Positions 34,614 through 56,862 of a DNA stretch of 58,505 nt are shown here, piece by piece. Position 1 is the stretch's first letter, and each line of letters starts with the position of its first letter. The notes beneath the pieces were generated by a model. That model was not told where the DNA came from and did no database searches. It was given only the letters and a program-made list of their open reading frames with translations. This DNA comes from a bacterium (lineage in GTDB: Bacteria; Desulfobacterota; JADFVX01): NCBI GenBank assembly GCA_032250935.1, contig JAVVFD010000002.1:1-58505 (forward strand), read 5' to 3'. Both the position numbers and the translations under genes were made by a program.

Positions 34614-37600
34614 ATGGTTCGCAAAAAAAGAAAATATACTGGGTTTATTGCTCTGGCGGCGCTTGTTTTATTTGCCCCGCTCGTGGCGATGGCGTATGAG
34701 CCTCCCTCTTTTGAATATGATTCGTCTTTGCAGCTTTCTTATGCCGGGCGCATGGCTCAGGACTTGGAAGGGAATATATATGTTGCCGATTCCAGGCAGG
34801 GTCGGGTCTATGTTTATGATAAGTACGGGCGCAGTGTTGATACCGTAAACACAATAGCTCAGCCTGCAGCGTTGGCGGCGGGTCCTGCCGGATACATATA
34901 TGTTGCATCACCTCATGGCGTGTATCTCTTGGGTGATAACGGGCAGGCGAGCTCCGTTATCGGTCAGGAAAACTTTGATTCTCCTGTCGACATGGCGATT
35001 GATGCGGCAGGGCAGATTTATCTGCTTGATAGCGGGACTCGTTCGATCAGGGTTTTTACCTCTACAGGTGTTAGTTTGGGAGAATTTGCAGGAGGCTCCG
35101 GTAAATACCCGGTTTCTCTTGCTGTGGGAGTGGATACTGTTTCCGGCGAGGAGTTGGTTTATGTTGGATATTCTGTTGAGTCACTTGATGCCGTTAACAC
35201 GGAAATAGTCATGGTCTTTGACTTGAACTATAATTTGGTCAGATCTTTCGGATCGGCGGTGAAGCTTGCTATATCCGATTCGGGTGCGCCCTCTGGAGAG
35301 GTAGCCAAGGCCGCTGAAATTGCTATCGATGATTTTGGTCGTGTATATCTTGCCGATACCTATGGTAAAAGAGTTGATATCTACAGTGAAAGGGGCGATT
35401 TTCTTGGCGAATATTCTGTCCGTGGCGATAGTTCTCCGGTTAATCTGCTTTTCGATCTGTATGGCAGGCTCTTTGTGTCTCTCTCTTCGGGTAGGATAGA
35501 TATTCTGTCTGTTGATGGTATGAACGTGGCGAATGTTATTCCTACTGCGCCATCGCTTCTTTCTCCGATAGGTGGCATGCGCATTGTATCGGCCACTCCT
35601 GAGCTTGTTGCCGGGAATTCTTCTGATCCCAATATGGATACTCTGGTTTATGAATTTGAGCTTGCATCTGACCCGTCTATGACTAGTAACGTATGGTCTT
35701 CCGGCCCGGTTGCAGAGGGGGGGGATGGATATACTTCGTCCTCTGTCGGCGTAGCTCTGGAGGAAGATCGGGAGTATTTCTGGCGGGTGAGGAGCTTTGA
35801 CGGGACTGAATATTCCCGCTATAGTTATGTTACCAGATTCTTCGTCAATGCAATTAACAGTGCTCCATCGTTTGATTCTTATTCTCCAGAATCCGATAGT
35901 GTTTATGGTTTGTCAGTCGGAGAAACAGTTGGCTTTGCCACAACGGTTAGCGACTCTGACAGGGATAAACTTGCAGTAGCCTGGTTCTTAAACGGTGTTG
36001 AGATTTCCAGCGGTACATCATATTCATATCTGGCGGTAAAAGGCGATGTGGGTGAAAATGTCGTCAAGGTGGTTTTGGCTGACGGTGAGTTTGATGTTGA
36101 GAGGCAGTGGAATGTGACTGTCATGAGACCTAACACGGCTCCTACCTCTCCAGCCCTTAACTCACCTGTCGGTTCTGAGGATGTTCTTAGTGTAAGGCCC
36201 GAACTTTCTATCAGTAACTCCTTTGATGCGGAAGGTGATGCCCTTGTCTATACATTTGAAGTAAGCAGGACAGACAATTTTAGTGACATCGTAGCGACTA
36301 TAAACGATGCTCCTTCCGGGGAAGGTTTTACCATTGCATCGGTGGGCGCAGATCTTGTTGAAAACAGTTTGTATTACTGGAGGGCGAGGGCCTGTGAGAC
36401 TCCTTCGACCGGATCTTTTGTGGCTCAGTACTATTGCAGTAATCCTTCGGCTACGGGCAGTTTTGTTGTAAATACCGTTAATGATCCTGTGGGCGCGCCT
36501 GCTGTCGCCTCTCCTGCTGATGCTGTGCATGTTAATACGCTTGATGGGCAGCTTGTGCTTAGCGTAGATAATGCTATAGATCCAGATTTGAATGACATTG
36601 TTGTCTATGATTTTGAGCTTGCGCTGGATGCGGCCTTTTCGGCTGTGATTTCGCACAATGAAGGGGTTGTTGAGAATGAGACGGGTTCAAGTTCATTTGC
36701 AGTGACAGCGGAATTTGAGGAAAACAGGACCTATTACTGGAGGGCCAGAGCCTCCGATGCGCAGACAGTCAGCGCTTGGGTGTCTACATCCTTTTTTGTT
36801 GATAATTATAATGATGCTCCCACAACTCCTATGGTTGATTCTCCCGTTATGGGGGCGGAGTCGCTTTCATTAAACCCCGTTTTGTCGGTGATTAATTCAG
36901 GGGACCTTAATGGCGATACGCTTTCCTATATCTTTGAAATCGACTCTGCTGAAAATTTCAGTGGCCCTGCAAGGCAGAGATCCGGTCTTATTACCGAAGC
37001 GGATACCATTACATCCTGGGCTACTGTCGCTCCCCTCCTTGATAATACCAGGTATTACTGGAGGGTGAAGGCCAGTGACGGTGTTTCGGAGAGCGGATGG
37101 TCAGTAGTAAATGAGCTTTTTGTTAATCTGTCAAATGACGCCCCCACCGCGCCAGTAGTTAAAGCGCCTTCCGGTGGTGTTGCGGTCAATAGCAATACTC
37201 CTGAGCTGACTGTTTACGCTGCAAACGATTTGGATGCTGATTTGCTGGGGTATAGATATCAGCTTTCAAGAACGGAAAGCTTTTCTTCGGTCGATATTGA
37301 GTCCGGCCTTGAGGGTCTTGCCTGGAATGTTGACGCGCAACTTGAGGAGAACGCCACTTATTACTGGAGATCCAGGGCGATAGATGAGCATGGTCTTTCC
37401 GGCGCATGGTCCGCAAAGGGCCAGTTTATGGTTAATGTAGTAAATGAACACCCCAGCGCTCCAGTGGCTGGTTCTTACACCTATAACTCCGGAGATGAGG
37501 TGCTTCTTCAGATAGGAAGCGCCGTCGACCCCGACGGGGATACTCTGAGCTATTTCGTTGAGCTTTATTCTGACAGGGGTATGACAGCAATTGCATACTC

Positions 37601-37799
37601 TGAAGAAGCTGTTGCCGGGGGCGCGGAAACTATCTCTAATGCCGGCGTCCTTAATCCTGGAGTCTATTACTGGAGGGTAAGGGCCTTTGACGGTGAAGTC
37701 TTCGGAAGCTGGAGCGATACAAGGATAATCAGGGTTAACACTCCCGGACTCACTGGACATGATCGTGCTGATAAGGCCCAAGGGCATAAAAGGTTCTAA
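34614..37799 (+). CDS. secreted NHL-repeat beta-propeller protein with an Ig-like domain and six FN3-like tandem repeats
   Basis: Signal peptide (ALAALVLFAPLVAMA). NHL-like blades: IYVADSRQGRVYVYDKYG, IYLLDSGTRSIRVFTSTG and VYLADTYGKRVDIYSERG. These are followed by six repeats of about 100-120 aa each. Confidence 0.8.
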   Translation: MVRKKRKYTGFIALAALVLFAPLVAMAYEPPSFEYDSSLQLSYAGRMAQDLEGNIYVADSRQGRVYVYDKYGRSVDTVNTIAQPAALAAGPAGYIYVASPHGVYLLGDNGQASSVIGQENFDSPVDMAIDAAGQIYLLDSGTRSIRVFTSTGVSLGEFAGGSGKYPVSLAVGVDTVSGEELVYVGYSVESLDAVNTEIVMVFDLNYNLVRSFGSAVKLAISDSGAPSGEVAKAAEIAIDDFGRVYLADTYGKRVDIYSERGDFLGEYSVRGDSSPVNLLFDLYGRLFVSLSSGRIDILSVDGMNVANVIPTAPSLLSPIGGMRIVSATPELVAGNSSDPNMDTLVYEFELASDPSMTSNVWSSGPVAEGGDGYTSSSVGVALEEDREYFWRVRSFDGTEYSRYSYVTRFFVNAINSAPSFDSYSPESDSVYGLSVGETVGFATTVSDSDRDKLAVAWFLNGVEISSGTSYSYLAVKGDVGENVVKVVLADGEFDVERQWNVTVMRPNTAPTSPALNSPVGSEDVLSVRPELSISNSFDAEGDALVYTFEVSRTDNFSDIVATINDAPSGEGFTIASVGADLVENSLYYWRARACETPSTGSFVAQYYCSNPSATGSFVVNTVNDPVGAPAVASPADAVHVNTLDGQLVLSVDNAIDPDLNDIVVYDFELALDAAFSAVISHNEGVVENETGSSSFAVTAEFEENRTYYWRARASDAQTVSAWVSTSFFVDNYNDAPTTPMVDSPVMGAESLSLNPVLSVINSGDLNGDTLSYIFEIDSAENFSGPARQRSGLITEADTITSWATVAPLLDNTRYYWRVKASDGVSESGWSVVNELFVNLSNDAPTAPVVKAPSGGVAVNSNTPELTVYAANDLDADLLGYRYQLSRTESFSSVDIESGLEGLAWNVDAQLEENATYYWRSRAIDEHGLSGAWSAKGQFMVNVVNEHPSAPVAGSYTYNSGDEVLLQIGSAVDPDGDTLSYFVELYSDRGMTAIAYSEEAVAGGAETISNAGVLNPGVYYWRVRAFDGEVFGSWSDTRIIRVNTPGLTGHDRADKAQGHKRF
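35541..37742 (+). repeat. six protein-level tandem repeats (with one Ig-like insert) in the NHL protein
   Basis: Recurrent signature PEL..(D/N)xDxDxLxYxFE...(E/D)N..YYWR(A/V)RAxD....WS....F.VNxxNxAPxxP. It occurs at aa 310-418, 508-628, 629-738, 739-846, 847-949 and 950-1043. The insert is at aa 419-507. Confidence 0.8.
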
Positions 37800-37810: not shown

Positions 37811-38566
37811 GTGAAAAATAAGACTGAATATGCAAAGAGAAGTTATGGACTGCTTTGGATTATTGCCGGAGTTTTGATTGTGGTTGGGTCGGCCAGACCT
37901 GCTTTAGCTGTAAAGGTTATTGATGTGTCAGCTACCAAGCATAATCTTGGTTCCGGTACTCCTGTAACATCAAACTGGTACTCAACTGATGAGTCTGAGG
38001 TATGCGTCTTCTGTCATACTCCTCATAATGCCATAAGTAATTATCCGCTTTGGAACCAGTATTCAACTACGATGAGCTTTACAGTTTACAGCAGTGGAAC
38101 CCTTACGGCCGGTGTTTATGCTACCGGACTTCTTCCAGCAAACTCCATGTCCAGGCTCTGTCTTTCCTGTCATGAAGGGACTATCGCGATAAACGCTCTT
38201 GCTAATCCCGGCAGTACTGTCGGCAGGCCTGCGATGGCAGGTGGGATCTCCGGTGATCAGTTTTCAGATGTTTTGCCAGCTGGGGCGGGCGCCTATCTGT
38301 CTTCTGACCTTTCTGCCATGCACCCGATCGGTTTCGACTATAACCTCTCCGATGCCGGTGACCCGGAGATTAATGATATTACCACCGGGCCGCTTGCGCA
38401 GGGCTTGAAGTTTATCAAGGGCGCGGGGGGAGAGGATTTTCTAGAATGCGTGACCTGTCACGATCCACACGTTAATGGAGAGGCAACGGGTGATCCGGAC
38501 TATAAATTCTTTTTACGCATACCGAATAAATCAAGTGCACTTTGCTTGGCCTGTCATAATAAGTGA
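37811..38566 (+). CDS. secreted tetrahaem cytochrome c, 'doubled/paired CXXCH' type
   Basis: GTG start behind an AGGAGA RBS, with a signal peptide ending ALA-VK. Motifs are CVFCHTPHN, CLSCH, CVTCHDPH and CLACH. The KHNL...CxFCHTPH context is typical of the paired-CXXCH family seen in Geobacter-type cytochromes. Confidence 0.85.
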   Translation: MKNKTEYAKRSYGLLWIIAGVLIVVGSARPALAVKVIDVSATKHNLGSGTPVTSNWYSTDESEVCVFCHTPHNAISNYPLWNQYSTTMSFTVYSSGTLTAGVYATGLLPANSMSRLCLSCHEGTIAINALANPGSTVGRPAMAGGISGDQFSDVLPAGAGAYLSSDLSAMHPIGFDYNLSDAGDPEINDITTGPLAQGLKFIKGAGGEDFLECVTCHDPHVNGEATGDPDYKFFLRIPNKSSALCLACHNK

Positions 38567-38585: not shown

Positions 38586-41500
38586 TTGAAGATGTTGAAA
38601 AATATGAGAGGGATTGTCTGGGTCGCTTTGATTATCTTCGGAGCAGTCCTTCAGCCTCAAAATTCTGATGCCAGGCTGGTCGGGCCCCATGCTACCAAGG
38701 TATGCGGAGACTGCCATTCAGCTGGCTTTGCCAGCATGTTCAATCAGGCTCCTACCTGTATTACAGCCGCCTGTCATATTAATCAGCTTGTAGAGGCAGA
38801 TGCATCTCAACTCTTCAATTATTCAAGCGCGGGCGGTCCCGTTGGGACATCTCACGCCTGGGGGGTTTCCTACACTGAATCCGGCGCCGCAGCAAAAGGA
38901 CCCTCGACTACGCGCCAGACAAGGTATGGTCCGGGCAATCTCGGCTGTTCCTCTTGCCATTATCCACACTATGCGCTTAACAACATTACAAGCCAGCCAC
39001 TTCTCAAGGTGGATAACAGCTCCGATCAACTATGTCTTGATTGCCACAGGGACAGAAATGTAACGAGCGCATCTCCACCTCCGGCCGGCAAACAGGGAAG
39101 TCATCCAGTAGGTCTTACTATCCCCGGGACTACGGCTTATAACAGTCCTCCTCTGAATCCATATTCCAGTATTTCTGGGTCTGAATTGAAATTAGTCGGC
39201 CCTGGTAGCGATACCGTATCATGCTCTACGTGCCACGGTGTGCATTTTGCCGATTCAAATCCCTATACCGCAGCTACGATGGTTGGACTGAGTACTGTTC
39301 CAGGTGGTCAAGGTGTGCTCCTAAGGAGATACAACGATTCACAGCTCTGTAAAGACTGTCACAGGTATCAGCAGCACGGACCTCTTGCCACACCTGCCAA
39401 ATGGCAGGACTGCAGGAACTGTCACGACCCGCACGATCCGGGCGCCAACTTCAAACTGGTAAGGTTTGACAGCTTCAGCGGTCCCGAAGGGTGGGTACAG
39501 GTCACATTCGACAGCCTTACCTCGAATTTTGCCGAGCGTATTGACGGAAAGCAGGGTATATGCGATGCCTGCCATAGTCTTGAGACGACCGGAGTGTTCC
39601 CAGGGTGGAGTTCGGGTCATTTATCAAAAGGGATTAGCAGGTCTTTGGCCTATCAGGCAGATTGTTTGAACTGTCACTCCCATGCGGAAGGTGACGGAAC
39701 AAGTGTCGGCAGTTTTGCTGCCGGCGGCGCGGCTGCCTGCGGTACATGCCACGGATATCCGCCTATGGCGAACTATTCCGGTCCTCCAAGCGGATATGCT
39801 GGCGGGTATAACGGCGCCGGGTCCTTCGTCAACGAGACCACCTCTCCCCACAGGAAACACGCATCCAGCGAGGGGTATGGCTCAAGGTTTGCGGGAAGCG
39901 GTTCCTACGGCACCGCCTGCAAGGCGTGCCACGGCATGCCGGATGAGTCTACTCACCAAACCAAAGTAGTTTATGGTGACTGGGCCTTCAAGCTATACAC
40001 ATGGCCCGGCGGCTCTCCGACATACGCCCAGTCAGGTGGCAACAAGTGGAAGTGTATAAACAACTACTGCCATAGTGACGGCGCGCCCAATGACGTAATC
40101 AGCTACACTACCCCTACGTGGAGTTCATTGCCAGGCACATTAGATTGTAGCGGATGTCATGCAGCAGCTCCTGTGTCCAACAAGCATACAAAGCATATAG
40201 GCGGCGGCGCAGACTACAGTTTCGGGTGCAGGAACTGCCATGTAAATACGGTTGATGACAACTCGACAATCTCTGCTGCTGGTGTGGCAACTTACCACGT
40301 GGACAGAACAAAGAGCGTCTTTTTCGGCGCCACAGCCGTATCCGGTACATACACGGCGGCAACCAAGGATTGCTCAAATACATATTGTCACGGTAACCTT
40401 GCCGACAACCAGGGTAACAACGCAACGCCTACATTCGGCGCTGCCGGAACGGCAACATGCGGCAGTTGTCACGACCTGGCACCGGCAGGCGATATAGCCA
40501 CTCATACGAAGCACGTCCAAACCTATGATTTCGGTTGTGCTTATTGTCACAACGACCTGGTGACGGCGGCCTTTGATACAAAGAGCACTATTGACAACCA
40601 GGCCATGCATGTAAACAACAGTGAAGACGTCAAGTTCGGTAATGACCTGAAGGGCAGGACCAATGCTGCCGGTACATACACAAAGGCGACGGGCAAGTGT
40701 GACACTATTTACTGCCATAGCGCCGGCACATCGACGCTGGCGGCAAATTTCTTCGTCAACGAGTCGACTATATGGAACAGCGCCACCGTAACTTGTGCCA
40801 GCTGTCACGGTAACTCTGTATACAGCGGCATGACTTCCGCCATGCCGAACTATCCGAATGGTCAGGACGGCAAGGAAAACAGCCATGTGAAGCACGTGGT
40901 TAATAACGGTATAGACTGTATCAGTTGTCATGAAGTGACTCTTGCCACCAATGTGACGATAGGTAATTATACTTCACATGTTAATGCCAAATATAATGTG
41001 GATATCAGTGCTACTTACGGCGGTTCCTACGATACCGGTACTCAGACCTGTACAGGCGTTAGTTGCCATGGTGCCGGTGCGCCTGTATGGGGCGCTACGC
41101 TATCATGCGCAGACTGCCATAACGGAGCAGGCGACGTAGATGACTTTGTTTTCGACAATAAGACTACGGCCACCATTAATCAAACACAGTGGGATAACGT
41201 AGGTCATGGACGTACGTCGGCCTTCCCGTCTGGCAACCCGGCCGCAAACCTGGGATGTGCGAACTGTCATGACAGCGGAGTTTCCCACGGAGTTGCAGGC
41301 AACCCCTTCAGGCTCTTCAGTTCCAACCCCGACCAGCTTTGTAATACTTGTCATGGCGTGGGCGGCGCTGCCACCAAGACCGGTGTCTTTACACACAGTT
41401 CCACTACGACTGACGGCAGACATGATTTCAAGATGAAGTGCGTTGACTGTCATGATCCGCACGGTGACGATAACGCGTTCATGATGCACAGCACCCTGCC

Positions 41501-44500
41501 TCAGCCTAACGGCCAGCCGAACTGGGAGCCATCAAACCAGTACGGTATACCGAACGGCGGAGTTACGTGGGAGAATATCGACTTCCCGAATAATGGCGCT
41601 GCCTTCCTTGCGAGTACATCCGTATCAGCGGCAACTGTCAAGGTATGTAACGTTTGTCACAGCAGGACGACAGATGTAGGGATTACGGATTCAAAGAAGA
41701 GATACAGAAAGGATATGAGCGGCGGTATCACAGAAGCGCACTATGTCGGCAACCAGTGTACAACCTCCTGTCATAAGCATACCGCAGGATTCGAGGGTGT
41801 GAGCTGCGAGGGATGCCACGGCATGCCGCCGGAAACGGGCCTCATGCTTCAGGATCTTGGCGCATACGACGCCAGTCCGACCGGCGAGGGGGCGCACGTC
41901 AAGCACGGTTCGATCTTCATCAGCGGGCCCAGGTGTAACGTATGTCACGATAAATCCATCGGCGGTATGGATCCATCGGGAGCGACTAACACCACGATCG
42001 ATATCAACTTCAAGGCCGACAATCAGTTGGGATCCTATACGACGGGTACTTATGACGCGACAGGCGCGGCGCACAATCCTGCGTATAACGGCAGCGTCAC
42101 CACCGGCGGAACATTTGTATGCTCTAACGTCAAGTGTCACGGTTCGGCCCTGACAAGCGGCAACGGCACCGATACCACTCCGGTTTGGAACAACCTTGCC
42201 ACTGGGGCCTGCGGTAAGTGCCACGGCGCCAAGACCGCGCCATCAACGGCTGCGGACGGCGGAACGGGATATCCCGGCTCGGGCGCCCACCAGAAGCATG
42301 CCGGATGGGGAGCAGGCGAGTACGATATCATGTGCCAGACATGTCATGATACGACGCTTACTACGGCCACCACCTTTGTAGAGAGTCTGCATGTTAACGC
42401 CGATACAGGCAGTACGGGTATAGGCATTGAGCCTGCCTACAATGATACGGCAACTGCGTTCAACTATGTAGACGGAACAAATACATGTGAAAACGCAGAC
42501 TGTCACGGCGAGAACAGCGTAGTCTGGACAGCCGGTGCTCAGACCTGTGATAGCTGCCATAACGGCGCCTCTGATGCGGATAACTTCACATACTCCAACC
42601 TGAGCGGCGTTGTTGCGAAAATAAATAACACCGAGTATACGAACAGCGGCCACGGCAGAACTACTGCTTATCCGGTGTCCGGCAACCCGGGCGCAAATAA
42701 GGGATGTACTGATTGCCATACAGCGACCAAGGACCACAGTACCGGGGCCACATATTTCAGGCTTCTTAATACGGATGATCCGAATACGCTATGCCTCAGC
42801 TGTCATGGTTCGGGCGCCGAACTTACCGGTGCATTCGGCACCATAACCGGTTACCAGGGTCATACATATGACAACCTGAGTACGGCAGGTTACACCAACC
42901 TGACTACATGGCACTTTACACCCAAGTGTATCGACTGCCACGACCCGCATGGTGACGGCAACATATTCATGATGCACAGCAAGGTCTCAGACGAGGGCAG
43001 TTCGACTGTTGCGCCTCTCGGTGTGCCGACCAACTTCCCGAATAACTCGACGGTAATCTTCTTGTCAGTTACAGGCGTTAACTCTTATGATGACGGCGAC
43101 GGCACGGCCAACCTCTGTGTTGTATGCCACGACAGGACGAGCCATAACGGAAACAGCGGATCCCATGCTGGTTATGCTGGGCTGGATTGTCGTGGCTGCC
43201 ATGACCATAAGCTCGGATTTACGCCTTCCGGGTGCGACGGTTGCCACGGTCAGGCCGGTGTGCAGATCTATCCGCCCGACGGACCTAATCTCCCGCTTGA
43301 CTGGGCTGAAGAGGCGGCAACGCCTGCATCGGTCGGCTCTCATGAGGCGCATGTCACCAAGCTGAGTTATGCATGCGCAGAGTGTCACGGCGACGGCAAC
43401 GGACAGGACCAGCCTCATGGTACAGGTAAGACCAATGCATACATGAAGAATCTTACATCATTGCATGGCGCGAACTTCACTCCTAACCTTGCGGGTACCA
43501 GCTCAGTTGTCGATGACACCTGTGCAAATGTTGACTGCCACAGTGGTCGCGCCTACCAGAGGTCATGGATTAACAATCCGACCACCTGCGATGCTTGCCA
43601 CGGTGGAAGGACCTCTGACGGGCTCAACCAGATCAGTACTGGCAGCCACGTGAAGCACACAGGCAACGGTGCAACGGAGTACGACTTCCAGTGTACGCTC
43701 TGTCACGTAGACAACACGGGGAACTTTGATCATTATAGTGTTGCCGACGTGGATCTGAACTTCACAGGACAGGGCACCGGCAGCTCTTATACGAGAGGAA
43801 CAGGATTTGCAACATTCACTACCGGAGCCGAGTGGGGTACATGTACGAGTGCATGCCACGGTGACGGGTTGCCCAGCTCAAGCAGCGGCACTCCGACATG
43901 GGGCGGGTCTTCGCTAACCTGCGAGAACTGCCACTATGCGACGGGGAACAAGGCCTTAATGAGCGCGCCGCATCCGACCCATCTGAATGCCGGAACCTAT
44001 AACTTCGACTGTTTCAATTGCCACGTACAGACTACTACGGACAATACGACGATCAACAACTACACGGCGCATGTTAACGGGAACCGTAACGTCGATTTCG
44101 ACACATACCTGGACAACGATTCGGGGAGCTTTAACGGAACCGCGACCAAGCAATGTCTCAACATCTACTGTCACAGCAACGGTACGGATACCGACGGCGT
44201 GGGACCATTCCCGATGGGGAACTTCACGGCGGACTGGGACGGAGCGACGCAGGGGTGCAAGTACTGCCACGGCGACGAGACCCTGGGCGGCTGGACTTCT
44301 GCAATGCCGAACTACGCCAACGGCGCGCCGAAGGCGAACAGTCACGCCAAGCATGTCAACGGCGGATACCAGTGCATCGACTGCCACGAGGTGACTCTGG
44401 CGACGAACGCCGCGATAGGGAACTATACCGCGCACATCAACGGCAACTACAATATTGACATAAACGCCTCTTATGGTGCGTCCGCAGCCTATACTCCCGG

Positions 44501-45767
44501 AACGAAGGTCTGCTCCAATGTGGACTGTCACGGCGGAAATCCCGTGACATGGGGTGATCCGAATGTAAATTGCTTTACCTGCCACAACGGAACCGATGAC
44601 GGAGCTGGAACTATGAAGCCATATTCCACCACCGGCAACGGGCCTAATGTTGTCAACTTTGTACAGTATACTACCGTAGGGCACGGCCTGAATACGGGCT
44701 CAACCTATAAGTATAGCGCTCTAAATGGCGCCGGTAAGTGGAATTCTTCCGGTCAGGGTTGCTACTCAGGTGATCCGCAGACGGGCTGTCATTCAGCTGC
44801 AGCGGGCCATATCACCAAAAATCCTGCCGATCCGTTCAGGCTCGGTGCATGGGCAGATGATATTGACGGACTATGCGCGACCTGCCACAACTCTGCGCAG
44901 GCTTCGAGCCATTCAGCGGCTGTAACCGGTAACCCGAAAGGCAGGACGTGGCCCTACGTGCCGAAATGTGTAGACTGTCATGACCCGCACGGGGACGCCA
45001 ATATACGCATGATCAGGAGTTCCATCAATACGCCATCCTCCGGTTCCGACTGGACCACCGGAGGCGGAAGCAACTCCAAGGGTGTGCCAACGACTAACGG
45101 CACTATTAAGGATGTTACCTTTACAAACAACAGCGGCTTCTCAAAGGCGGGTGGTTTTGCCGGTGTGGATGCGGCTGCCGCCGACGGTATCTGTGAGGTC
45201 TGTCATACCAACAATGCCGCTATAGGCACTATTATCAACTGGTACAACGCGCAGGGGGACGACAACAATACAAACCACGTCTCCAATGCGGGAAAGGCGT
45301 GCTCCAACTGTCACCAGCATGACGGAGGGTTCGCCGCATCGGGCGGGTCGTGCGACAGCTGTCACAGCTGGCCGCCCAAGATTGGTGACGGGAGCGATTA
45401 TATGTCTGCTGAACAGGAAGGGAAGGGGCGTCATAGTTCTCACTTTGTCCATCTCTCCAGTCTCTCTGCCGCGCCTTTTGTTAACGTATCCGCTGCTACA
45501 GCTGCAGGCTATGGTCAGGGAATTAATGCTGAAATTTGCGGGACCTGCCATAGTAATGATGAATCAGCTGACCACCAAAAGGGAGGTCGAAACATCAACT
45601 TCGGCGCACCTTCAAACACGCTTGAATATTCCTTCGACGGAACGGCGCCGTTCTATAACGGATCGACCTCCGTATCTTCGGCAACGAGGATGAAGAACTG
45701 TTCCAATGTGAGATGTCACTTCCAGAATAGCCCCGGATGGCAAGACCCATCCGAGCCGAAGATTTAG
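38586..45767 (+). CDS. giant modular secreted multihaem cytochrome c (2393 aa)
   Basis: Hand count on the translation gives 46 CxxCH, 11 CxxxxCH, 2 CxxxCH and 1 Cx8CH. It has a signal-peptide-like N-terminus (IVWVALIIFGAVL). ATG 38592, with a GGAGGA RBS 8 nt upstream, is probably the real start rather than TTG 38586. I see no TM anchor or lipobox. Confidence 0.9.
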   Translation: MKMLKNMRGIVWVALIIFGAVLQPQNSDARLVGPHATKVCGDCHSAGFASMFNQAPTCITAACHINQLVEADASQLFNYSSAGGPVGTSHAWGVSYTESGAAAKGPSTTRQTRYGPGNLGCSSCHYPHYALNNITSQPLLKVDNSSDQLCLDCHRDRNVTSASPPPAGKQGSHPVGLTIPGTTAYNSPPLNPYSSISGSELKLVGPGSDTVSCSTCHGVHFADSNPYTAATMVGLSTVPGGQGVLLRRYNDSQLCKDCHRYQQHGPLATPAKWQDCRNCHDPHDPGANFKLVRFDSFSGPEGWVQVTFDSLTSNFAERIDGKQGICDACHSLETTGVFPGWSSGHLSKGISRSLAYQADCLNCHSHAEGDGTSVGSFAAGGAAACGTCHGYPPMANYSGPPSGYAGGYNGAGSFVNETTSPHRKHASSEGYGSRFAGSGSYGTACKACHGMPDESTHQTKVVYGDWAFKLYTWPGGSPTYAQSGGNKWKCINNYCHSDGAPNDVISYTTPTWSSLPGTLDCSGCHAAAPVSNKHTKHIGGGADYSFGCRNCHVNTVDDNSTISAAGVATYHVDRTKSVFFGATAVSGTYTAATKDCSNTYCHGNLADNQGNNATPTFGAAGTATCGSCHDLAPAGDIATHTKHVQTYDFGCAYCHNDLVTAAFDTKSTIDNQAMHVNNSEDVKFGNDLKGRTNAAGTYTKATGKCDTIYCHSAGTSTLAANFFVNESTIWNSATVTCASCHGNSVYSGMTSAMPNYPNGQDGKENSHVKHVVNNGIDCISCHEVTLATNVTIGNYTSHVNAKYNVDISATYGGSYDTGTQTCTGVSCHGAGAPVWGATLSCADCHNGAGDVDDFVFDNKTTATINQTQWDNVGHGRTSAFPSGNPAANLGCANCHDSGVSHGVAGNPFRLFSSNPDQLCNTCHGVGGAATKTGVFTHSSTTTDGRHDFKMKCVDCHDPHGDDNAFMMHSTLPQPNGQPNWEPSNQYGIPNGGVTWENIDFPNNGAAFLASTSVSAATVKVCNVCHSRTTDVGITDSKKRYRKDMSGGITEAHYVGNQCTTSCHKHTAGFEGVSCEGCHGMPPETGLMLQDLGAYDASPTGEGAHVKHGSIFISGPRCNVCHDKSIGGMDPSGATNTTIDINFKADNQLGSYTTGTYDATGAAHNPAYNGSVTTGGTFVCSNVKCHGSALTSGNGTDTTPVWNNLATGACGKCHGAKTAPSTAADGGTGYPGSGAHQKHAGWGAGEYDIMCQTCHDTTLTTATTFVESLHVNADTGSTGIGIEPAYNDTATAFNYVDGTNTCENADCHGENSVVWTAGAQTCDSCHNGASDADNFTYSNLSGVVAKINNTEYTNSGHGRTTAYPVSGNPGANKGCTDCHTATKDHSTGATYFRLLNTDDPNTLCLSCHGSGAELTGAFGTITGYQGHTYDNLSTAGYTNLTTWHFTPKCIDCHDPHGDGNIFMMHSKVSDEGSSTVAPLGVPTNFPNNSTVIFLSVTGVNSYDDGDGTANLCVVCHDRTSHNGNSGSHAGYAGLDCRGCHDHKLGFTPSGCDGCHGQAGVQIYPPDGPNLPLDWAEEAATPASVGSHEAHVTKLSYACAECHGDGNGQDQPHGTGKTNAYMKNLTSLHGANFTPNLAGTSSVVDDTCANVDCHSGRAYQRSWINNPTTCDACHGGRTSDGLNQISTGSHVKHTGNGATEYDFQCTLCHVDNTGNFDHYSVADVDLNFTGQGTGSSYTRGTGFATFTTGAEWGTCTSACHGDGLPSSSSGTPTWGGSSLTCENCHYATGNKALMSAPHPTHLNAGTYNFDCFNCHVQTTTDNTTINNYTAHVNGNRNVDFDTYLDNDSGSFNGTATKQCLNIYCHSNGTDTDGVGPFPMGNFTADWDGATQGCKYCHGDETLGGWTSAMPNYANGAPKANSHAKHVNGGYQCIDCHEVTLATNAAIGNYTAHINGNYNIDINASYGASAAYTPGTKVCSNVDCHGGNPVTWGDPNVNCFTCHNGTDDGAGTMKPYSTTGNGPNVVNFVQYTTVGHGLNTGSTYKYSALNGAGKWNSSGQGCYSGDPQTGCHSAAAGHITKNPADPFRLGAWADDIDGLCATCHNSAQASSHSAAVTGNPKGRTWPYVPKCVDCHDPHGDANIRMIRSSINTPSSGSDWTTGGGSNSKGVPTTNGTIKDVTFTNNSGFSKAGGFAGVDAAAADGICEVCHTNNAAIGTIINWYNAQGDDNNTNHVSNAGKACSNCHQHDGGFAASGGSCDSCHSWPPKIGDGSDYMSAEQEGKGRHSSHFVHLSSLSAAPFVNVSAATAAGYGQGINAEICGTCHSNDESADHQKGGRNINFGAPSNTLEYSFDGTAPFYNGSTSVSSATRMKNCSNVRCHFQNSPGWQDPSEPKI

Positions 45768-45770: not shown

Positions 45771-48700
45771 GTGTCGGAGATGATTATTAAAAATAGCATT
45801 CAAAAGCTCTCAAGGAACAATCAAAGGCGACTAAAAGATGGAGAAGTTAGAGAGATGACCGGTGTAACTGAAAACAACCTAAACTCCAAAGGGAGAAGTG
45901 CTATGCGGAACTTTTTGAAATCTCTTGCTTTGCTGAAGGGATCAATAGGAAAGATTGAAGGGGTACGGGAAAGATCTGTACCGAGTCGGTCCAAGATCGC
46001 TCCACTGGTCTTGAGCCTCTCTCTTTGTATCGCTTTTTTTTCTGTGACAAGCAGCGCGAATGCTGCGGAAGAGTTTCTCAGTGTTGACAGTAATGGGGCC
46101 AGCTCCGGTTGGGGGGGGGCATGGACCGATGTACAATTCTCTGATGGAACCGCTATAGGACCAGCCGCAAAAAATGCCAGGTCCACCTTCGGATTAACTG
46201 CACCGACAGGAACCGGTGTCATCACAAATGTGGCCGTCATAGCAGAATGTATGGACGCCGGAGGCCCGGAGATGATAAACGGTGTTGTCAGAACCGGCGG
46301 TACCGATTATCTTGGAACTTCTGTGTCAATGACTGGCGCTTATTCTGAATATCAGTTTGACTGGGCAACAAATCCTGGTGGTGGTAACTGGACATGGGCT
46401 CAGCTTGCTGCTCTTGAGGCCGGCGTTGAAGCGACAGCCAGTGGAGGTTGGGGGGGGACTCCGCTATGTAACTTTATTACTGTTATGGTTACATATGTTC
46501 CGCAGACTCAGGATCTGACGCTCTTTGAGGATATTTCATATGATGAATATACCCCTGTCTCAGATGTTCCTTTGGCAAAGGTGAGGACCAGTTCAGGCGG
46601 GGACATTGTCGGGAACGGATATAGCGTTACAGCTGTTACAGTAACACTGGGTGATGGTGGAGGTACACCACTTAGCCCCACCGGCCCTATTAACGTCTAT
46701 TATTCCACTATTGATGATTTAGTCACAGCGAAGAGCGGCGGTTCTAAAGGGATATGTGCCTCCCCTGTTGTGGGCACTCCATGTAATTTCGCTCTTTCCG
46801 GTATCGGTAATGAGACAGGTTATATGTTTTTCACCATTGATCTCGTATCAGGCGCCCTTGGAGATTATGATTTAACAGTATCAAGTTTCACCATTGGCGG
46901 CGCTTCCACGGACCTGATACCTCTGCCCAAGACGACGGCAGCGAAAAGCGTAAAACCGCCTACTCAGACACTTGACTACTTTTTCGACTACGCCCAGAGG
47001 TACAGGGCTAATGTGACTGCGCCAGTTACGGATCTCCTTCTTGCGAGAATAAATACGAACGCGACAAGTGAAGGGAAGCCGTTTGCCAACGTGAGTGCAG
47101 GTGTTTTCGGAACTATTTCATCAATTGATAATCTAAGGGTCTGGTGGAATACGACAGAAGATTTTGGAAGTGCAACGAAAATAGGTGAAGTTCTTGCTCC
47201 TACGCGAGATACGCTTTATAATATCGACATGACACTAAATGGTGGAGGGGGGTATGTGCGGGGATATATTTATTTCTCTATTAGCATGCCTGATGCCGGT
47301 AACAACGGCGGGTATTCCCTCCATATTAATAGCATGAGGGACAATAAGGGACCTGCCGATGACAACCTCCCTCTTCCGCGGAATACTACGACGAACTATC
47401 TGATTGATCCCTATAAGATCCAGGTCTGTGCTGAATGTCATGCCTATCCTCCCTATGACGCGCCTGCAACGAGGGGTACGCCGACAGGCGCGGTGCTTGG
47501 AAACCATTCTGCGCATGCAAGGTTCAACATGATGAAGTGTTCCAGCTGCCATGGAGATACGACGTCGGGTGAGTCGGACCCTGCTCATAGAAATAACTAT
47601 GTTGAACTCAGGAACCCTCTGGGTCCGCCTTCAGGCGCAGGCGTCTATTCCAGGGGCTACACATTCGCGCAGTCTACAACGACCACTCTGGGTACATGCT
47701 CTGCTATCGAATGCCATAACGGCATCGCCCAGACATGGGGGACGTCGAATACCATGGTCTGTAACGATTGTCACCTTTCTGGATCGGCTGATACTGACGA
47801 CTTTACATACGATGAATTCACCTCCACTGCAGTACCGAGGTTGTATTCATCCGAATGGGCATATTCAGGGCATGGAAAGTCTTCGGGTAACTACGACCTG
47901 ACGGGTAATCCGGCTGCTGGATTGGACTGCACTAATTGTCATGACTCTACACTTCCTCACGGTGATTCGATCATTCCTTACAGGACGAAGGCAACTGGAA
48001 ACATGGACATTTTCTGTCAAAATTGTCACGGTACGTCAGCAGAGATAGGCTCTCTCTTTACAACGGTTTCAACTGTTGCCAGGGGTATCAAGACCCACTC
48101 CAGGGGCGTGTTTATAGAAGAAAACTATAAGAGCCTTGGAACGTGGAGGGTTGAGACCCTTAAATGTATTGATTGTCACGATCCGCATGGGGACGGCACA
48201 AGTGGCAGCGGCAACAAGGGGATGCTTCACAAGCAGGTATGGACCGGTGGCAGCGACACTAAGGGACGCCCACTGCCTTTCGATGCCGGTTATTCAACCG
48301 TCGTCTTCAACAGCCCCACCGGTGTTGGGGGATACGGTAATAATGACGCCGCAACGACTTACATCTGCGAGGTCTGTCACTCAACTACCTCTTTCCATCA
48401 GCGTAACGGAGGAGGTACGGCCCATTTCGAAGGGATTAGATGCCCCGACTGTCACCAGCATGACAAAGGCTGGGCGCCTTACGAGGAGTGTACCGAATGT
48501 CACGCTGTTCCGAGGAACTATCTCTATAACGTAAGACAGATCGTAGAGAAGGATGGCGATGGCGCTGGTGACTTTGTAAAATTAAGCCGTCACGTGAGCA
48601 ACGGTACGGCCACCGAGATAGTTACCTCTTTTGACTGTGTCGTCTGCCACGCCGAGGGTGATTACGCTAAAGTCAATCTTAACGCCGGCTTCACTAGCGC

Positions 48701-49826
48701 TACTTTACATAACGACGGATCTACATCTGGAGTTTCAGCAGCAACCGACAGGAAAGTTCACCTGAGGGATGTTGATAACCCTGACTCTTACTTTATCTGG
48801 AATAAGAATGAATCAAATGCCGCCACCAAAGAGACATATAGAACAAATATGGACAACTTCTGCATGGCCTGCCATGATACTGACGGTGCATCGGGTATTG
48901 CCGTTAACGCCGGTGACAATGGTCTTGATCTGACGCCGACCGCTGATATCGCACTCAAGCCTTTCAACTCGAATGATACTATCAGAAACGGCAGGGACGG
49001 TTTTACAAGCAGAACAAGGGTAGTCGATGTATGGGATCAGTTCAATCCCGGTTCTGGTGGCTCCGGTGCCGGTTATAACGGAAACCCCTCTCAGCATGGC
49101 GTTCGTGGCGCAAGGTACAGTACGAAAAACGCCGGATGGAACGCCTCTAACGGCGGTGCTTGGACGACACATACTCTGAAAGACGGGACAACAGTGCTTG
49201 GTGGTGCAGGTGGAGCCGGTGAGACGGCGATGCTTCACTGTTCAGACTGCCATCTCTCCGAAACGAACGCACATGGCGCAACGAACGCATGGCATATGCT
49301 CCTCAACGGTACGGTAAACGATCACACCTCCGATACCGTAATGGGTGGACAGCTCGATACGACCACATCATCAGTCGTATGCTACAAGTGCCACAACTCA
49401 GGTGTCTATTCTAACTCTGCCAGTACACTTCCGAGATGGTCCCATGATGACGACGGCAACGTATGGGGCAGATCATATGGTAATGAACTAGGAGACAAGG
49501 GTAACGAACTCGGCCCAACATGCCTGCAGTGCCATGCTGGTGATGGTTTCGGACGTATTCACGGACGTGGTTCGGCCACAGACGGTGACCAGGGCGCTAC
49601 CTACGGTACAAATATAGGTACCTATGGAAAATACAGGTTTATGCCCGGCGCATACCAGAGCATATCACCCGGAACGAACGCTGATGATACAGCATGGACC
49701 CAGGGAAGCGGGACCGCCATGACATGCTACCTGACTCCAAATTCAACATGGTCCGGATGCTCTCAGCATAGTGGCGCAAAGTCCGGTGGTGGAACTGCCA
49801 ACTATGGCAGGGCATTGACATATTAA
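45771..49826 (+). CDS. chimeric secreted protein: non-haem beta-rich N-terminal region + multihaem cytochrome c C-terminal region
   Basis: 14 CxxCH plus 1 CxxxxCH, all located after aa 550. The likely true start is ATG 45903 (MRNFLK..), with a GGGAGA RBS 6 nt upstream. A signal-like segment LVLSLSLCIAFFSVTSSANA-AEE follows it. Confidence 0.85.
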   Translation: MSEMIIKNSIQKLSRNNQRRLKDGEVREMTGVTENNLNSKGRSAMRNFLKSLALLKGSIGKIEGVRERSVPSRSKIAPLVLSLSLCIAFFSVTSSANAAEEFLSVDSNGASSGWGGAWTDVQFSDGTAIGPAAKNARSTFGLTAPTGTGVITNVAVIAECMDAGGPEMINGVVRTGGTDYLGTSVSMTGAYSEYQFDWATNPGGGNWTWAQLAALEAGVEATASGGWGGTPLCNFITVMVTYVPQTQDLTLFEDISYDEYTPVSDVPLAKVRTSSGGDIVGNGYSVTAVTVTLGDGGGTPLSPTGPINVYYSTIDDLVTAKSGGSKGICASPVVGTPCNFALSGIGNETGYMFFTIDLVSGALGDYDLTVSSFTIGGASTDLIPLPKTTAAKSVKPPTQTLDYFFDYAQRYRANVTAPVTDLLLARINTNATSEGKPFANVSAGVFGTISSIDNLRVWWNTTEDFGSATKIGEVLAPTRDTLYNIDMTLNGGGGYVRGYIYFSISMPDAGNNGGYSLHINSMRDNKGPADDNLPLPRNTTTNYLIDPYKIQVCAECHAYPPYDAPATRGTPTGAVLGNHSAHARFNMMKCSSCHGDTTSGESDPAHRNNYVELRNPLGPPSGAGVYSRGYTFAQSTTTTLGTCSAIECHNGIAQTWGTSNTMVCNDCHLSGSADTDDFTYDEFTSTAVPRLYSSEWAYSGHGKSSGNYDLTGNPAAGLDCTNCHDSTLPHGDSIIPYRTKATGNMDIFCQNCHGTSAEIGSLFTTVSTVARGIKTHSRGVFIEENYKSLGTWRVETLKCIDCHDPHGDGTSGSGNKGMLHKQVWTGGSDTKGRPLPFDAGYSTVVFNSPTGVGGYGNNDAATTYICEVCHSTTSFHQRNGGGTAHFEGIRCPDCHQHDKGWAPYEECTECHAVPRNYLYNVRQIVEKDGDGAGDFVKLSRHVSNGTATEIVTSFDCVVCHAEGDYAKVNLNAGFTSATLHNDGSTSGVSAATDRKVHLRDVDNPDSYFIWNKNESNAATKETYRTNMDNFCMACHDTDGASGIAVNAGDNGLDLTPTADIALKPFNSNDTIRNGRDGFTSRTRVVDVWDQFNPGSGGSGAGYNGNPSQHGVRGARYSTKNAGWNASNGGAWTTHTLKDGTTVLGGAGGAGETAMLHCSDCHLSETNAHGATNAWHMLLNGTVNDHTSDTVMGGQLDTTTSSVVCYKCHNSGVYSNSASTLPRWSHDDDGNVWGRSYGNELGDKGNELGPTCLQCHAGDGFGRIHGRGSATDGDQGATYGTNIGTYGKYRFMPGAYQSISPGTNADDTAWTQGSGTAMTCYLTPNSTWSGCSQHSGAKSGGGTANYGRALTY

Positions 49827-49858: not shown

Positions 49859-49886
49859 GGGGGATCGTAAGATCCCCCTTTTTTTT
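49859..49886 (+). terminator. Rho-independent terminator closing the NHL-cytochrome operon
   Basis: GGGGGATC-gtaa-GATCCCCC, an 8-bp GC-rich stem, followed by T8. Confidence 0.85.
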
Positions 49887-50617: not shown

Positions 50618-50760
50618 ATAAGCGACTAAGAGTTTTTGAATCTGGTGTCTTATTTATTCTTCTAATGCCGACTACAATAAAAGTAGTTTTCCATCAAGTT
50701 GGATGGCTCAAGTTTTAGCGGCTCATTGGATATAAAGGGATACTATAAATTAAAAAATAA

Positions 50761-51777: not shown

Positions 51778-51852
51778 AGGCAAGAAAAAAACTCTTTTAA
51801 CTTTCAAGGGCTACTCCCTGTTCAGCTCGCATCAATATGGTGTTACCTCGTC

Positions 51853-53262: not shown

Positions 53263-53350
53263 AAAAGATCTTAAGATGGACTGATTTCTGAAAGAGTGCT
53301 ATTATCAAGTCTTGCATATAATAAAACTTCAACGAATGTAGATAATTAAA

Positions 53351-56849: not shown

Positions 56850-56862
56850 GGTATAGAAGGCA

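Follow-up and report, generated by a model that had tools for sequence, protein, structure and literature searches.

The window, a stretch of 58,505 nucleotides of DNA, encodes a giant c-type cytochrome in which 14 haem motifs deviate from the usual CxxCH spacing, and two sets of genes for cytochrome c maturation by System II lie downstream of it. This raises the question whether the unusual motifs are genuine haem-attachment sites and whether they require a dedicated haem lyase. The latter had been proposed in a first-pass annotation, according to which one of the additional CcsBA sets may be needed for a fraction of the haems. The genes and elements of the locus are as follows:

34614-37799, forward strand: NHL-repeat/Ig-domain protein, 1061 aa, conserved ahead of the cytochrome genes in L001, an orthologous locus
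37811-38566, forward strand: Paired_CXXCH/NrfH-like tetrahaem cytochrome of 251 aa with four CxxCH; syntenic in both L001 and L002
38586-45767, forward strand: 60-haem c-type cytochrome of the TIGR01904/PF09698 'CxxxxCH/CxxCH domain' family, with a Sec signal peptide
45771-49826, forward strand: 15-haem neighbour, 1351 aa, containing one trihaem module, one hexahaem unit and a conserved C-terminal domain
47427-47717, forward strand: trihaem module of the neighbour, containing CSAIECH at residue 643 (47697-47717)
47760-48455, forward strand: hexahaem unit of the neighbour
49023-49823, forward strand: conserved C-terminal domain of the neighbour, with the terminal motif CYLTPNSTWSGCSQH at 49725-49769
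49859-49886, forward strand: intrinsic-terminator-like hairpin, GGGGGATC-GTAA-GATCCCCC followed by eight T, 33 nt past the stop codon of the neighbour
50042-54220, forward strand: System II set 1, four genes: 191-aa membrane-anchored protein (50042-50617), short divergent ResB-like protein (50761-51777), ResB (51853-53262) and CcsA (53351-54220)
54250-55008, forward strand: gene that lies between the ccs sets and encodes an ankyrin-repeat protein, hydrophobic in an N-terminal segment
55033-57684, forward strand: System II set 2: 177-aa partner (55033-55566), ResB (55563-56849) and divergent CcsA (56863-57684)

The orthologous loci L001 and L002 stem from the samples ERR6430845 and ERZ25747235, respectively. 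Residues of the 60-haem cytochrome are numbered throughout from the TTG at 38586, which yields 2393 aa; the start chosen by the gene caller is two residues later (P0001, 2391 aa). In the translation of 38586-45767 all 120 cysteines were located within 60 CXnCH motifs, and no free Cys was left. The motifs comprise 46 CxxCH, 11 Cx4CH (C58, 490, 596, 705, 822, 1179, 1301, 1646, 1857, 1976 and 2372), two Cx3CH (C1058, CTTSCH, and C1753, CTSACH) and one Cx8CH (C2059, CYSGDPQTGCH), and thus each of the fourteen odd spacings of the first-pass annotation was confirmed. In 2000 composition-preserving shuffles Cx4CH occurred 0.28 times on average and three times at most. The two Cx3CH were equalled in 3% of the shuffles and the single Cx8CH in 18%, so that these counts alone are not significant; the sites are supported because there is no free Cys and because they align with paralogous or orthologous haem sites.

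The 60-haem cytochrome is a member of an already catalogued repeat family with curated TIGRFAM and Pfam models. TIGR01904 matched ten stretches (E 6e-54, 179.7 bits; cut-off 27) and PF09698 five stretches (52 bits; cut-off 21.7), and further Pfam matches were to PF14522 and PF22113. PF09698 was present in 119 of 119 retrieved homologues, many of which are titled 'CxxxxCH/CxxCH domain c-type cytochrome'. Together with the 60-haem cytochrome they contain 1072 Cx4CH and 172 Cx3CH motifs, and family-wide 96.5% of the Cys sit inside CXnCH motifs. The Cx4CH sites have a consensus of their own, (G/K)(T/S)-C-(S/A/T)-(N/T)-(V/T/I)-Y-C-H-(S/G); the CxxCH positions are flat. Chance pairs, disulfides or Fe-S cysteines as the origin of the odd motifs were ruled out by the lack of free Cys, the invariant His after the second Cys and the loop consensus. 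A search of solved structures with the whole 60-haem protein as query yielded no match at E<=0.01, and biochemical studies of TIGR01904/PF09698 family members were not found in the literature searched.

It was revealed that the protein consists of a 9-haem N-terminus, 11 trihaem modules (T) and three hexahaem units (H), in the order 9 + (4T+H) + (2T+H) + (4T+H) + T:

38703-39677, forward strand: N-terminal 9-haem region, residues 40-364, with the non-modular Cx4CH at C58 (38757-38777)
39738-41066, forward strand: T1-T4, residues 385-495, 521-601, 625-710 and 737-827, with Cx4CH at C490, 596, 705 and 822
41106-41774, forward strand: H1, residues 841-1063, last site Cx3CH, CTTSCH (41757-41774)
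41805-42503, forward strand: T5-T6, residues 1074-1184 and 1209-1306, with Cx4CH at C1179 and C1301
42546-43202, forward strand: H2, residues 1321-1539, CxxCH throughout
43233-44531, forward strand: T7-T10, residues 1550-1651, 1668-1758, 1779-1863 and 1891-1982, with Cx4CH at C1646, 1857 and 1976
44571-45314, forward strand: H3, residues 1996-2243, second site Cx8CH, CYSGDPQTGCH (44760-44792)
45351-45719, forward strand: T11, residues 2256-2378, last motif CSNVRCH, 14 aa before the protein end

Each of the modules T1-T4 reads CxxCH .. HxKH .. CxxCH .. HVN .. Cx4CH. The third haem site of the trihaem module accounts for 11 of the 14 odd sites, namely ten Cx4CH and the Cx3CH of T8 (43842-43859), which is the Cx4CH of the module minus one residue. 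The remaining three are C58 in the N-terminal region and C1058 and C2059 in hexahaem units, both of which are CxxCH in paralogous units; the Cx8CH of H3 is a CxxCH site with a six-residue insertion. In an alignment of 28 homologous three-module stretches the Cys and His of two Cx4CH sites were invariant, which bears out the earlier view that these motifs are conserved structural elements. Three further His per module (in HxKH and HVN) were also conserved in the 28 sequences; their number would suffice for bis-His ligation of three haems. An AlphaFold2 model of T2-T4 from the same 28 rows reached a pLDDT of 56.7, too poor for a fold search. The CSAIECH of the 15-haem neighbour, which had been noted as an equivalent case, was found in the same kind of trihaem module; the neighbour scored 29 bits with TIGR01904 (cut-off 27), and the two cytochromes together have 75 haems.

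The odd motifs had also been described as always opening a module. A recurrent module position is indeed occupied by 11 of the 14; C58, C1058 and C2059 lie elsewhere. The choice between an opening and a closing Cx4CH depends on the phase in which the repeat is read, and the TIGR01904 model begins just before the Cx4CH. In this family a CxxCH is expected about 20-30 residues past each repeated Cx4CH; the gap from a Cx4CH to the next CxxCH is 12-27 residues at nine of the ten module sites, the tenth being C-terminal. The ends of the array favour a unit of CxxCH, CxxCH and Cx4CH in which the Cx4CH haem comes last: CGTCHGYPP at 385 begins the first unit, and only 14 aa follow CSNVRCH at the protein end.

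A comparison with two orthologues showed that the spacing drifts at individual sites. Site 58 is x4 in the 60-haem cytochrome and Cx6CH in both orthologues. Site 1058 is Cx3CH in both orthologues, and it is CxxCH in H2, H3 and the 15-haem neighbour. In the orthologue P0002 the Cx8CH at 2059 is a Cx6CH and the Cx3CH at 1753 is a Cx4CH (CDATYCH). Sites 385, 919 and 2097, which are x2 in the 60-haem cytochrome, are x3 or x4 in one orthologue. C58, C1058 and C2059 are thus lineage-variable insertions at sites that are CxxCH in paralogues or otherwise spaced in orthologues. As the spacer at homologous sites drifts among 2, 3, 4, 6 and 8 residues, haem counters should accept CX2-8CH in the TIGR01904/PF09698 family.

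These results suggest that all 14 odd sites would be genuine covalent haem-attachment sites, and we infer from the sequence that the Cx3CH and Cx8CH sites carry haem as well. The 60-haem cytochrome may be a giant secreted multihaem "wire" with presumed bis-His ligation, in which the ten Cx4CH sites and the Cx3CH that arose by a one-residue deletion would carry the third haem of the module. The two extra residues of Cx4CH, with their N/T-V/I/T-Y signature, could form a family-specific loop. At C58, C1058 and C2059 residues would have been inserted between the two Cys of ordinary sites in a lineage-variable manner, so that the inter-Cys spacing would tolerate 2 to 8 residues.

Both System II sets pair a ResB (PF05140) with a CcsA (PF01578) above the Pfam cut-offs; both CcsA copies, with 158.7 and 101.6 bits, missed the equivalog cut-off of TIGR03144 (187.6). 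The two CcsA proteins are 28.6% identical. The CcsA of set 1 has a canonical WWD domain, and in an alignment its His residues coincide with those in the CcsBA structures 7S9Y and 25VK. The CcsA of set 2 has an altered WWD, GSYYSSTLFGKWWTWDPVD; throughout its clade the WWD is changed at four to five conserved positions and has the form GSYYSSxL(F/Y)GxWWxWDP, and His 129, 224 and 263 are invariant. The WWD domain and the conserved CcsA histidines are accordingly present in both sets, the WWD in altered form in set 2. The aligned His residues probably correspond to P-His1, TM-His2 and P-His2 in the H. hepaticus numbering.

With generic CcsA proteins of Nitrospirota, the CcsA of set 1 shares about 60% identity, and its best matches in a contig scan (60-61%) were from Nitrospirota MAGs. 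Counterparts of its 191-aa and 338-aa partners (E 3.5e-31 and 1.5e-32) are encoded in L008 and L010, two generic Nitrospirota loci that contain the four-gene unit of set 1 and have no multihaem cytochrome nearby. Because the unit recurs at such loci, set 1 is probably a general System II rather than an extra set. Most likely it would be the general CcsBA of the lineage, which would have moved beside its largest client. A further ccs copy may exist elsewhere in the genome. Loci of the set 2 type were gathered by a metagenome scan with an alignment of set 2 CcsA. The clade comprised 61 homologues and is rarer than the set 1 type. Its recurrent companions are a small partner protein and, in most cases, a second, canonical set, and it adjoins NHL proteins and cytochromes. 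Canonical and altered sets were found together as a cassette in several distinct loci, some of them from MAGs labelled Deltaproteobacteria and Spirochaetia. Set 2 would most likely be a second, divergent CcsBA tied to gene modules of NHL and multihaem proteins for extracellular electron transfer, and its specificity, if any, would concern the cytochromes of the module rather than the Cx4CH spacing. Both the function in extracellular electron transfer and the division of labour between the ccs sets are what we infer from gene content. Overall, it is likely that the odd sites are genuine haem sites of a family of "wires", that set 1 is general, that set 2 is divergent and associated with the gene modules, and that neither is specific for spacing.

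Several observations would fit the alternative that goes back to the first-pass annotation, in which Cx4CH, Cx3CH and Cx8CH need a dedicated lyase; of the two sets, the more plausible candidate would be set 2, given its divergence and altered WWD. Two deeply diverged sets lie 0.2-8 kb downstream of the cytochromes, an arrangement that is syntenic in the orthologous locus L002, and the WWD of set 2 was changed systematically while the conserved histidines were kept. In Wolinella, System II isoenzymes are specific for spacing or ligand (CcsA1 for CX15CH, NrfI for CXXCK), and in anammox bacteria, too, the WWD of a second CcsA is modified; the background that had been given on NrfI, CcsA1 and NrfEFG agrees with reviews. 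Moreover, one Cx3CH or Cx4CK is present in several cytochromes beside cassettes of the set 2 type (L003, L005, L013, L020, L030). However, set 2 and Cx4CH did not co-occur across loci, as would be expected for a motif-specific lyase. In L037 a CcsA of the set 2 type directly follows a cytochrome of more than 2827 aa in which 54 of 54 motifs are CxxCH and Cx4CH is absent, and in L026 and L031 it lies beside a 13-haem protein in which every motif is CxxCH (13 of 13 in L026). Conversely, downstream of the giant of L041, which has 14 Cx4CH, and of the four TIGR01904 proteins of L042, the only type of CcsA has a WWD that is canonical or nearly so, and within 10 kb of the Cx4CH-rich giant of L043 no CcsA follows. 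Among the loci compared, TIGR01904 proteins adjoin genes of the set 2 type only in the window's own lineage. The spacing drift at the same sites of close orthologues is likewise hard to square with strict matching of lyase and motif. In addition, hydrazine dehydrogenase of Kuenenia, a System II organism, carries haem on CX4CH in its solved structure (PMC6469936). In the literature searched, no experimental evidence of System II handling CX3CH or CX4CH variants was found. The comparative data thus gave no support to the inference of a lyase from the spacing, yet they did not refute it, and a dedicated lyase for the odd spacings appears unlikely.

Another role for the ccs genes would be capacity or co-regulation: they could supply haem export and ligation for the load of 60 or 75 haems, without specificity and with redundant sets. 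ResB and CcsA are indeed common beside giant cytochromes whatever their motif content (the window, L001, L002, L041, L042, L037 and L026). Redundancy leaves unexplained, however, why set 2 falls into a clade apart, in which the altered WWD is conserved and a small partner protein belongs to the set, and why a canonical and an altered cassette occur together in several distinct loci. Furthermore, the terminator-like hairpin at 49859 stands between the cytochrome genes and the ccs genes, which are therefore perhaps not co-transcribed. This explanation is possible, if somewhat doubtful. The client of set 2 might instead be the C-terminal motif C-Y-X9-15-C-x-x-H of the neighbour family (CYLTPNSTWSGCSQH in the window), as an MccA-like long-spacer site with the His displaced from the second Cys. 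The C-terminal domain of about 250 aa is common to cytochromes at 9 of about 13 set-2-type loci with enough flank, the motif is kept in 106 of 114 family representatives, and short relatives read Cx3CH, an ordinary haem motif (L003, L005), Cx4CKH (L013) or Cx4CSH (L020) at the equivalent position. Yet besides its three invariant CxxCH the domain has just three more His that never vary (H84, H180 and H249), and the terminal His is more simply explained as the third distal ligand and the Cys pair C1319/C1330 as a disulfide staple. MtrC-type cytochromes are said to have a conserved disulfide of such a kind, and we know of no c-type haem site with a His two residues after the second Cys. A forward test failed as well: the giant of L041 ends in this domain, and within 10 kb downstream the only CcsA has a canonical WWD. 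The idea that the P0003 locus lacks the 15-haem neighbour was rejected, since the domain is fused to the end of a 3545-aa protein; the fused domain lacks the terminal His. Such a client is thus improbable. An AlphaFold2 model of the neighbour's domain from 13 rows had a pLDDT of 36.7 and was too poor for a fold search. Set 2 could also stand for a class of cytochrome c synthases, so far undescribed, that are dedicated to particular substrates and accompany NHL and multihaem modules in several MAG lineages unrelated to one another. The client would then perhaps be some of the non-CxxCH spacings or C-Y-X9-15-C-x-x-H, which in the latter case would make a c-haem binding motif of a new type; this is rather unlikely. 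The preferred reading, a general set 1 and a module-associated set 2, was retained.

The tetrahaem cytochrome c3 of Desulfovibrio, a haem-dense bis-His protein, has two Cx4CH haems with the following His as proximal ligand. Cx4CH is also among the accepted haem motifs listed in PMC11492766. Beyond generic c3/c7 Pfam matches no sequence relationship between it and the 60-haem cytochrome was detected, and it is made by System I in Desulfovibrio, whereas the 60-haem locus encodes System II. A close likeness is to the 'Geobacter CxxxxCH...CXXCH motif' cytochromes of TIGR01904/PF09698, among them Geobacter proteins with 26-35 haems, e.g., GSU0702, which have in common a giant size, the Cx4CH..CxxCH unit with the loop (S/A/T)-(N/T)-(V/I/T)-Y, nearly all Cys in haem motifs, and NHL-repeat proteins and ResB/ResC pairs nearby. 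In contrast to these, the host of the 60-haem protein is an uncultured lineage with a CcsA closest to Nitrospirota MAGs, and the protein has its own module arrangement and lineage-specific Cx3CH and Cx8CH insertions. The ResB/ResC pairs of Geobacter were proposed to act each on the cytochromes of adjacent genes (Aklujkar et al., 2009; PMC2700814). Wolinella succinogenes, with CcsA2, NrfI and CcsA1, resembles the locus in having several System II synthases per genome, at least one of them beside its presumed client. However, in Wolinella the synthases are fused CcsBA proteins whose specificity for CXXCK or CX15CH is proven, while ResB and CcsA are separate proteins in the 60-haem locus and any specificity of theirs would be putative, and neither ccs set is linked to Cx4CH by the comparative data. 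Anammox bacteria have a similar dual CcsA-CcsB system, a canonical set and a second one with a modified tryptophan-rich CcsA motif and a shorter CcsB (Ferousi et al., 2013); their motif, WGxxAWGxYFLWDAK, differs from that of set 2, which in addition has a small partner protein.

The odd spacings themselves are a rediscovery of a family with curated models, are routine in cytochrome surveys and change little. What is useful is the clean dissection of the 60-haem protein into 11 trihaem and three hexahaem units, and a narrower target for the question why giant-cytochrome clusters carry System II genes, namely a CcsA clade with a rewritten WWD and a small partner, usually together with a canonical set. 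If this clade were substrate-specific, the isoenzyme paradigm of Wolinella and anammox bacteria would extend to extracellular electron-transfer modules, and this would matter for the heterologous production of multihaem "wires".

The locus also resembles a gene cluster named uet, for undecahaem electron transfer, which a preprint describes from Ca. Tenderia electrophaga and from Gallionella (Eddie et al., 2022). The uet cluster contains two kinds of cytochrome, one tetrahaem and one large and multihaem, together with NHL-repeat proteins and ccsA/ccsB, the latter proposed to mature the cytochromes of the cluster. This four-part set is complete at 34614-57684, and comparable sets with NHL-repeat proteins are present in the related clusters L003, L005, L013 and L041. 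Genes for the uet porin UetC, the PPIase UetB and the trihaem c7 proteins UetDEG were not found within the window. In comparison with the uet cluster the 60-haem TIGR01904 protein is an addition. A CcsA from a Gallionella MAG was among the homologues of set 2.

The open reading frame of the 60-haem protein was translated and a motif census was performed for this cytochrome and its 15-haem neighbour.

38586-45767, + strand, 60-haem protein, translation of 2393 aa
45771-49826, + strand, 15-haem neighbour, 1351 aa

All 120 cysteines of the 60-haem protein (120/120) are located inside C-Xn-C-H motifs. These comprise 46 CxxCH, 11 Cx4CH (C58, 490, 596, 705, 822, 1179, 1301, 1646, 1857, 1976, 2372), two Cx3CH (C1058, C1753) and one Cx8CH (C2059), and the stretch 38757-45719 spans C58 to the His of the final motif. 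It was verified that the motifs and coordinates of the first-pass annotation agree exactly with the census, and the CSAIECH that it had reported for the neighbour was found at residue 643, as one of 15 motifs. The claim that the odd spacings are not due to chance was borne out by count for Cx4CH, because 2000 residue shuffles yielded a mean of 0.28 and a maximum of 3 Cx4CH, versus 11 observed. The counts of Cx3CH (2) and Cx8CH (1) alone were not significant versus the shuffles; these sites were taken as supported because no free cysteine is present and because they align to haem sites of paralogues and orthologues. Elsewhere in the window, a small c554-like cytochrome of 193 aa (27222-27803) has three CxxCH and one Cx3CH (CAEKCH); its gene, 7 kb upstream of the cluster, is flanked by genes for a histidine kinase and for a tRNA synthetase of class I (Glu/Gln-type).

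The 60-haem protein is matched by TIGR01904 (NCBIfam, 'CxxxxCH/CxxCH domain c-type cytochrome') in 10 stretches (E 6e-54), by PF09698 (Pfam, 'Geobacter CxxxxCH...CXXCH motif') in five, and further by PF14522, PF14537, PF09699 and PF22113. A homologue search in 5.8 billion proteins returned 220 relatives. With the window's protein set aside, PF09698 was present in 119/119 of the relatives listed, many of which bear the TIGR01904 name and whose sources include Geobacter, Geotalea, Anaeromyxobacter, Deferrisoma and Nitrospirae MAGs. Together with the window's protein, these 120 proteins contain 4657 CxxCH, 1072 Cx4CH, 172 Cx3CH and some 65 motifs of other spacing, and C-Xn-C-H motifs account for 96.5% of their cysteines. 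The Cx4CH loop has the consensus (G/K)(T/S)-C-(S/A/T)-(N/T)-(V/T/I)-Y-C-H-(S/G), while the CxxCH positions are nearly flat. Cytochrome surveys accept and routinely count CX3CH and CX4CH as haem motifs (PMC11492766, PMC10734462), and in the structure of the Kuenenia hydrazine dehydrogenase a haem is bound to CX4CH (PMC6469936). Kuenenia is a member of a group in which System II, comprising two sets of CcsAB, is reportedly used (PMC4222556). The family matches, the loop consensus and the survey practice thus show that the repeated Cx4CH is a hallmark of a curated family and not a new feature; the 60-haem protein is a new, well-resolved member of a known domain family. Its host belongs to an uncultured lineage, the CcsA of which is closest to Nitrospirota.

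Self-alignment resolved the 60-haem protein into three kinds of region, including trihaem (T) modules and hexahaem (H) units.

N-terminal region, 9 haems
T modules, 11 copies, CxxCH-(G/A)(Y/M/W)PP .. HxKH .. CxxCH .. HVN .. Cx4CH
H units, three copies (H1 to H3), residues 841-1063, 1321-1539 and 1996-2243

Their order is 9 + 4T+H + 2T+H + 4T+H + T, and the neighbour contains a single T with a single H after it. In ten T modules of the 60-haem protein the third haem site is a Cx4CH; in the remaining one it is the Cx3CH at 1753, which has lost one residue (CDATYCH in the orthologue P0002). The earlier statement that the odd spacings always open a module therefore holds for the position of these eleven sites, but C58, C1058 and C2059 are not module-defining. 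C58 falls within the N-terminal region, and both orthologues (P0002 and P0003) have Cx6CH at this site. C1058 carries one inserted residue at the last site of H1; its equivalent is CxxCH in H2, H3 and the neighbour, and both orthologues have Cx3CH there. C2059 results from six inserted residues at the second site of H3, where P0002 has Cx6CH. The opposite is seen at sites 385, 919 and 2097, which are CxxCH in the 60-haem protein and Cx3CH or Cx4CH in one orthologue. These differences at homologous sites indicate that the inter-cysteine spacer is evolutionarily labile. Whether Cx4CH opens or closes a module is a question of phase: the TIGR01904 model starts just before Cx4CH, and the array ends favour it as the closing haem. 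Its role as a conserved structural element was confirmed, since neither its Cys nor its His varies among 28 aligned sequences of three-module stretches. The same alignment contains three further conserved His per T module, which would suffice to give each of the module's three haems bis-His ligation.

Downstream of the cytochrome genes two ResB/CcsA pairs of System II are encoded.

49859-49886, intrinsic-terminator-like hairpin
50042-50617, + strand, 191-aa protein of set 1, upstream of ResB
50761-51777, + strand, 338-aa divergent short ResB-like protein of set 1 (blastp E 4e-19 to ResB-2)
53351-54220, + strand, CcsA of set 1, canonical WWD domain (the tryptophan-rich haem-handling site), conserved His kept
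55033-57684, + strand, set 2: 177-aa protein, ResB (55563-56849) and CcsA (56863-57684)

The hairpin lies just after the 15-haem gene, between the cytochrome and the ccs genes; it is strong (8-bp G+C-rich stem, GTAA loop, T8 tail) and can also be read on the minus strand. Past it, the G+C content drops: the cytochrome genes have about 0.50-0.55 and the ccs genes about 0.41-0.43. The set 1 CcsA has more than 236 relatives and about 60% identity to the CcsA of many Nitrospirota MAGs. The 338-aa reading frame received no Pfam or NCBIfam assignment. All four genes of set 1 recur in the Nitrospirota loci L008 and L010 (small protein, 38% identity, E 3.5e-31; short ResB, E 1.5e-32), and no multihaem cytochrome was found near the ccs genes of L007, L008, L009 and L010 within the available flanks. 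Because the same genes occur there without a nearby multihaem cytochrome, set 1 looks like the general System II of the lineage, and the recurrence suggests a four-gene unit (191-aa protein, short ResB, ResB, CcsA) in that lineage. The gene between the two sets (54250-55008) codes for an ankyrin-repeat protein whose N-terminus has a hydrophobic segment; the orthologous locus L002 has a 256-aa gene in the matching position.

The set 2 CcsA belongs to a rare clade, with only 61 relatives, and shares only 28.6% identity with that of set 1. Its WWD is altered clade-wide to GSYYSSxL(F/Y)GxWWxWDP: other residues stand in place of two conserved Trp, and neither the Glu nor the last Trp is preserved, but the invariant His are still present. 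Among the loci with this type of CcsA (L003, L005, L013-L040), the most distant clade members (L037, L038) have W.WE in this motif. In gene contexts from 25 metagenome loci and additional look-ups, a small protein, ResB and altered-WWD CcsA form a recurrent cassette, which usually adjoins a second, canonical-WWD ResB/CcsA pair and stands beside NHL-repeat proteins and multihaem cytochromes. This divergent clade, with its altered WWD and partner protein, is the most interesting remainder of the case.

The first-pass annotation had proposed that a fraction of the haems may depend on one of the extra CcsBA sets. The hypothesis is old: for Geobacter, where ResB/ResC is encoded next to 26-35-haem proteins and a conserved hypothetical protein, each ResB/ResC pair was proposed in 2009 to be dedicated to cytochromes encoded nearby (PMC2700814). 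A similar proposal exists for the Tenderiales uet cluster (tetrahaem cytochrome, NHL proteins, undecahaem cytochrome, ccsAB). No experimental test of such dedication was found in the literature. Giant cytochromes are indeed commonly adjoined by ccs genes in the loci compared, and cytochromes beside set-2-type cassettes carry Cx3CH in L003, L005, L020 and L030 and Cx4CK in L013. However, they contain only CxxCH in L026/L031 (13/13) and L033 (7/7, partial gene). The most telling case against a link with Cx4CH is the partial L037 cytochrome (2-8482, >2827 aa), which has 54/54 CxxCH and is directly followed by ResB and an altered-WWD CcsA, and then by a canonical pair. Among the loci examined, the window's own lineage is the only one in which Cx4CH-rich proteins neighbour set 2. 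In L041, a small protein, ResB and a CcsA with canonical WWD come after the giant (14 Cx4CH); in L042, ResB and a near-canonical CcsA come after four TIGR01904 proteins; and the Cx4CH-rich giant of Geotalea uraniireducens (L043) has no ccs genes within 10 kb. Thus, neither ccs presence nor the altered WWD correlated with Cx4CH in the loci compared. This comparative evidence does not favour a dependence of the odd haem sites on an extra CcsBA, and for set 1, which appears to be general, the term 'extra' seems inappropriate.

What the cytochromes adjoining set-2-type cassettes have in common is a C-terminal domain some 250 aa long. It is present in the 15-haem neighbour (49023-49823), at the end of the L037 giant and at the fused C-terminus of P0003 (L001 10001-20638; 3545 aa, 79 motifs, 66% identity), which is a fusion of a 60-haem-type protein with this domain. 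L001 has no separate 15-haem gene, and P0003 is directly followed by a ResB. Clustering at 50% leaves 115 representatives of the family, the position of the domain is always C-terminal, and three CxxCH as well as H84 and H180 are invariant. A terminal motif C-Y-X9-15-C-x-x-H (CYLTPNSTWSGCSQH at 49725-49769 in the neighbour) occurs in 106/114 representatives, and 12 or more of the 120 giant TIGR01904 homologues likewise end in it. Short relatives have Cx3CH, Cx4CKH or Cx4CSH at its position. One possible reading of the motif is an unconventional site of haem attachment that the altered lyase would serve. However, the three haems are matched by three spare invariant His, which favours a disulfide-stapled cap, the His of which would be a distal ligand, and the one forward check, on L041, revealed no altered-WWD CcsA nearby. 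Structure prediction of the domain was uninformative.

A further observation in the window is a sulfate-activation gene set on the minus strand (17755-22196), which encodes a fused ATP-sulfurylase/APS kinase, a CysN-like GTPase-APS kinase fusion and a PAPS-reductase-family (CysD-like) protein, so that two APS-kinase domains are present in adjacent genes.
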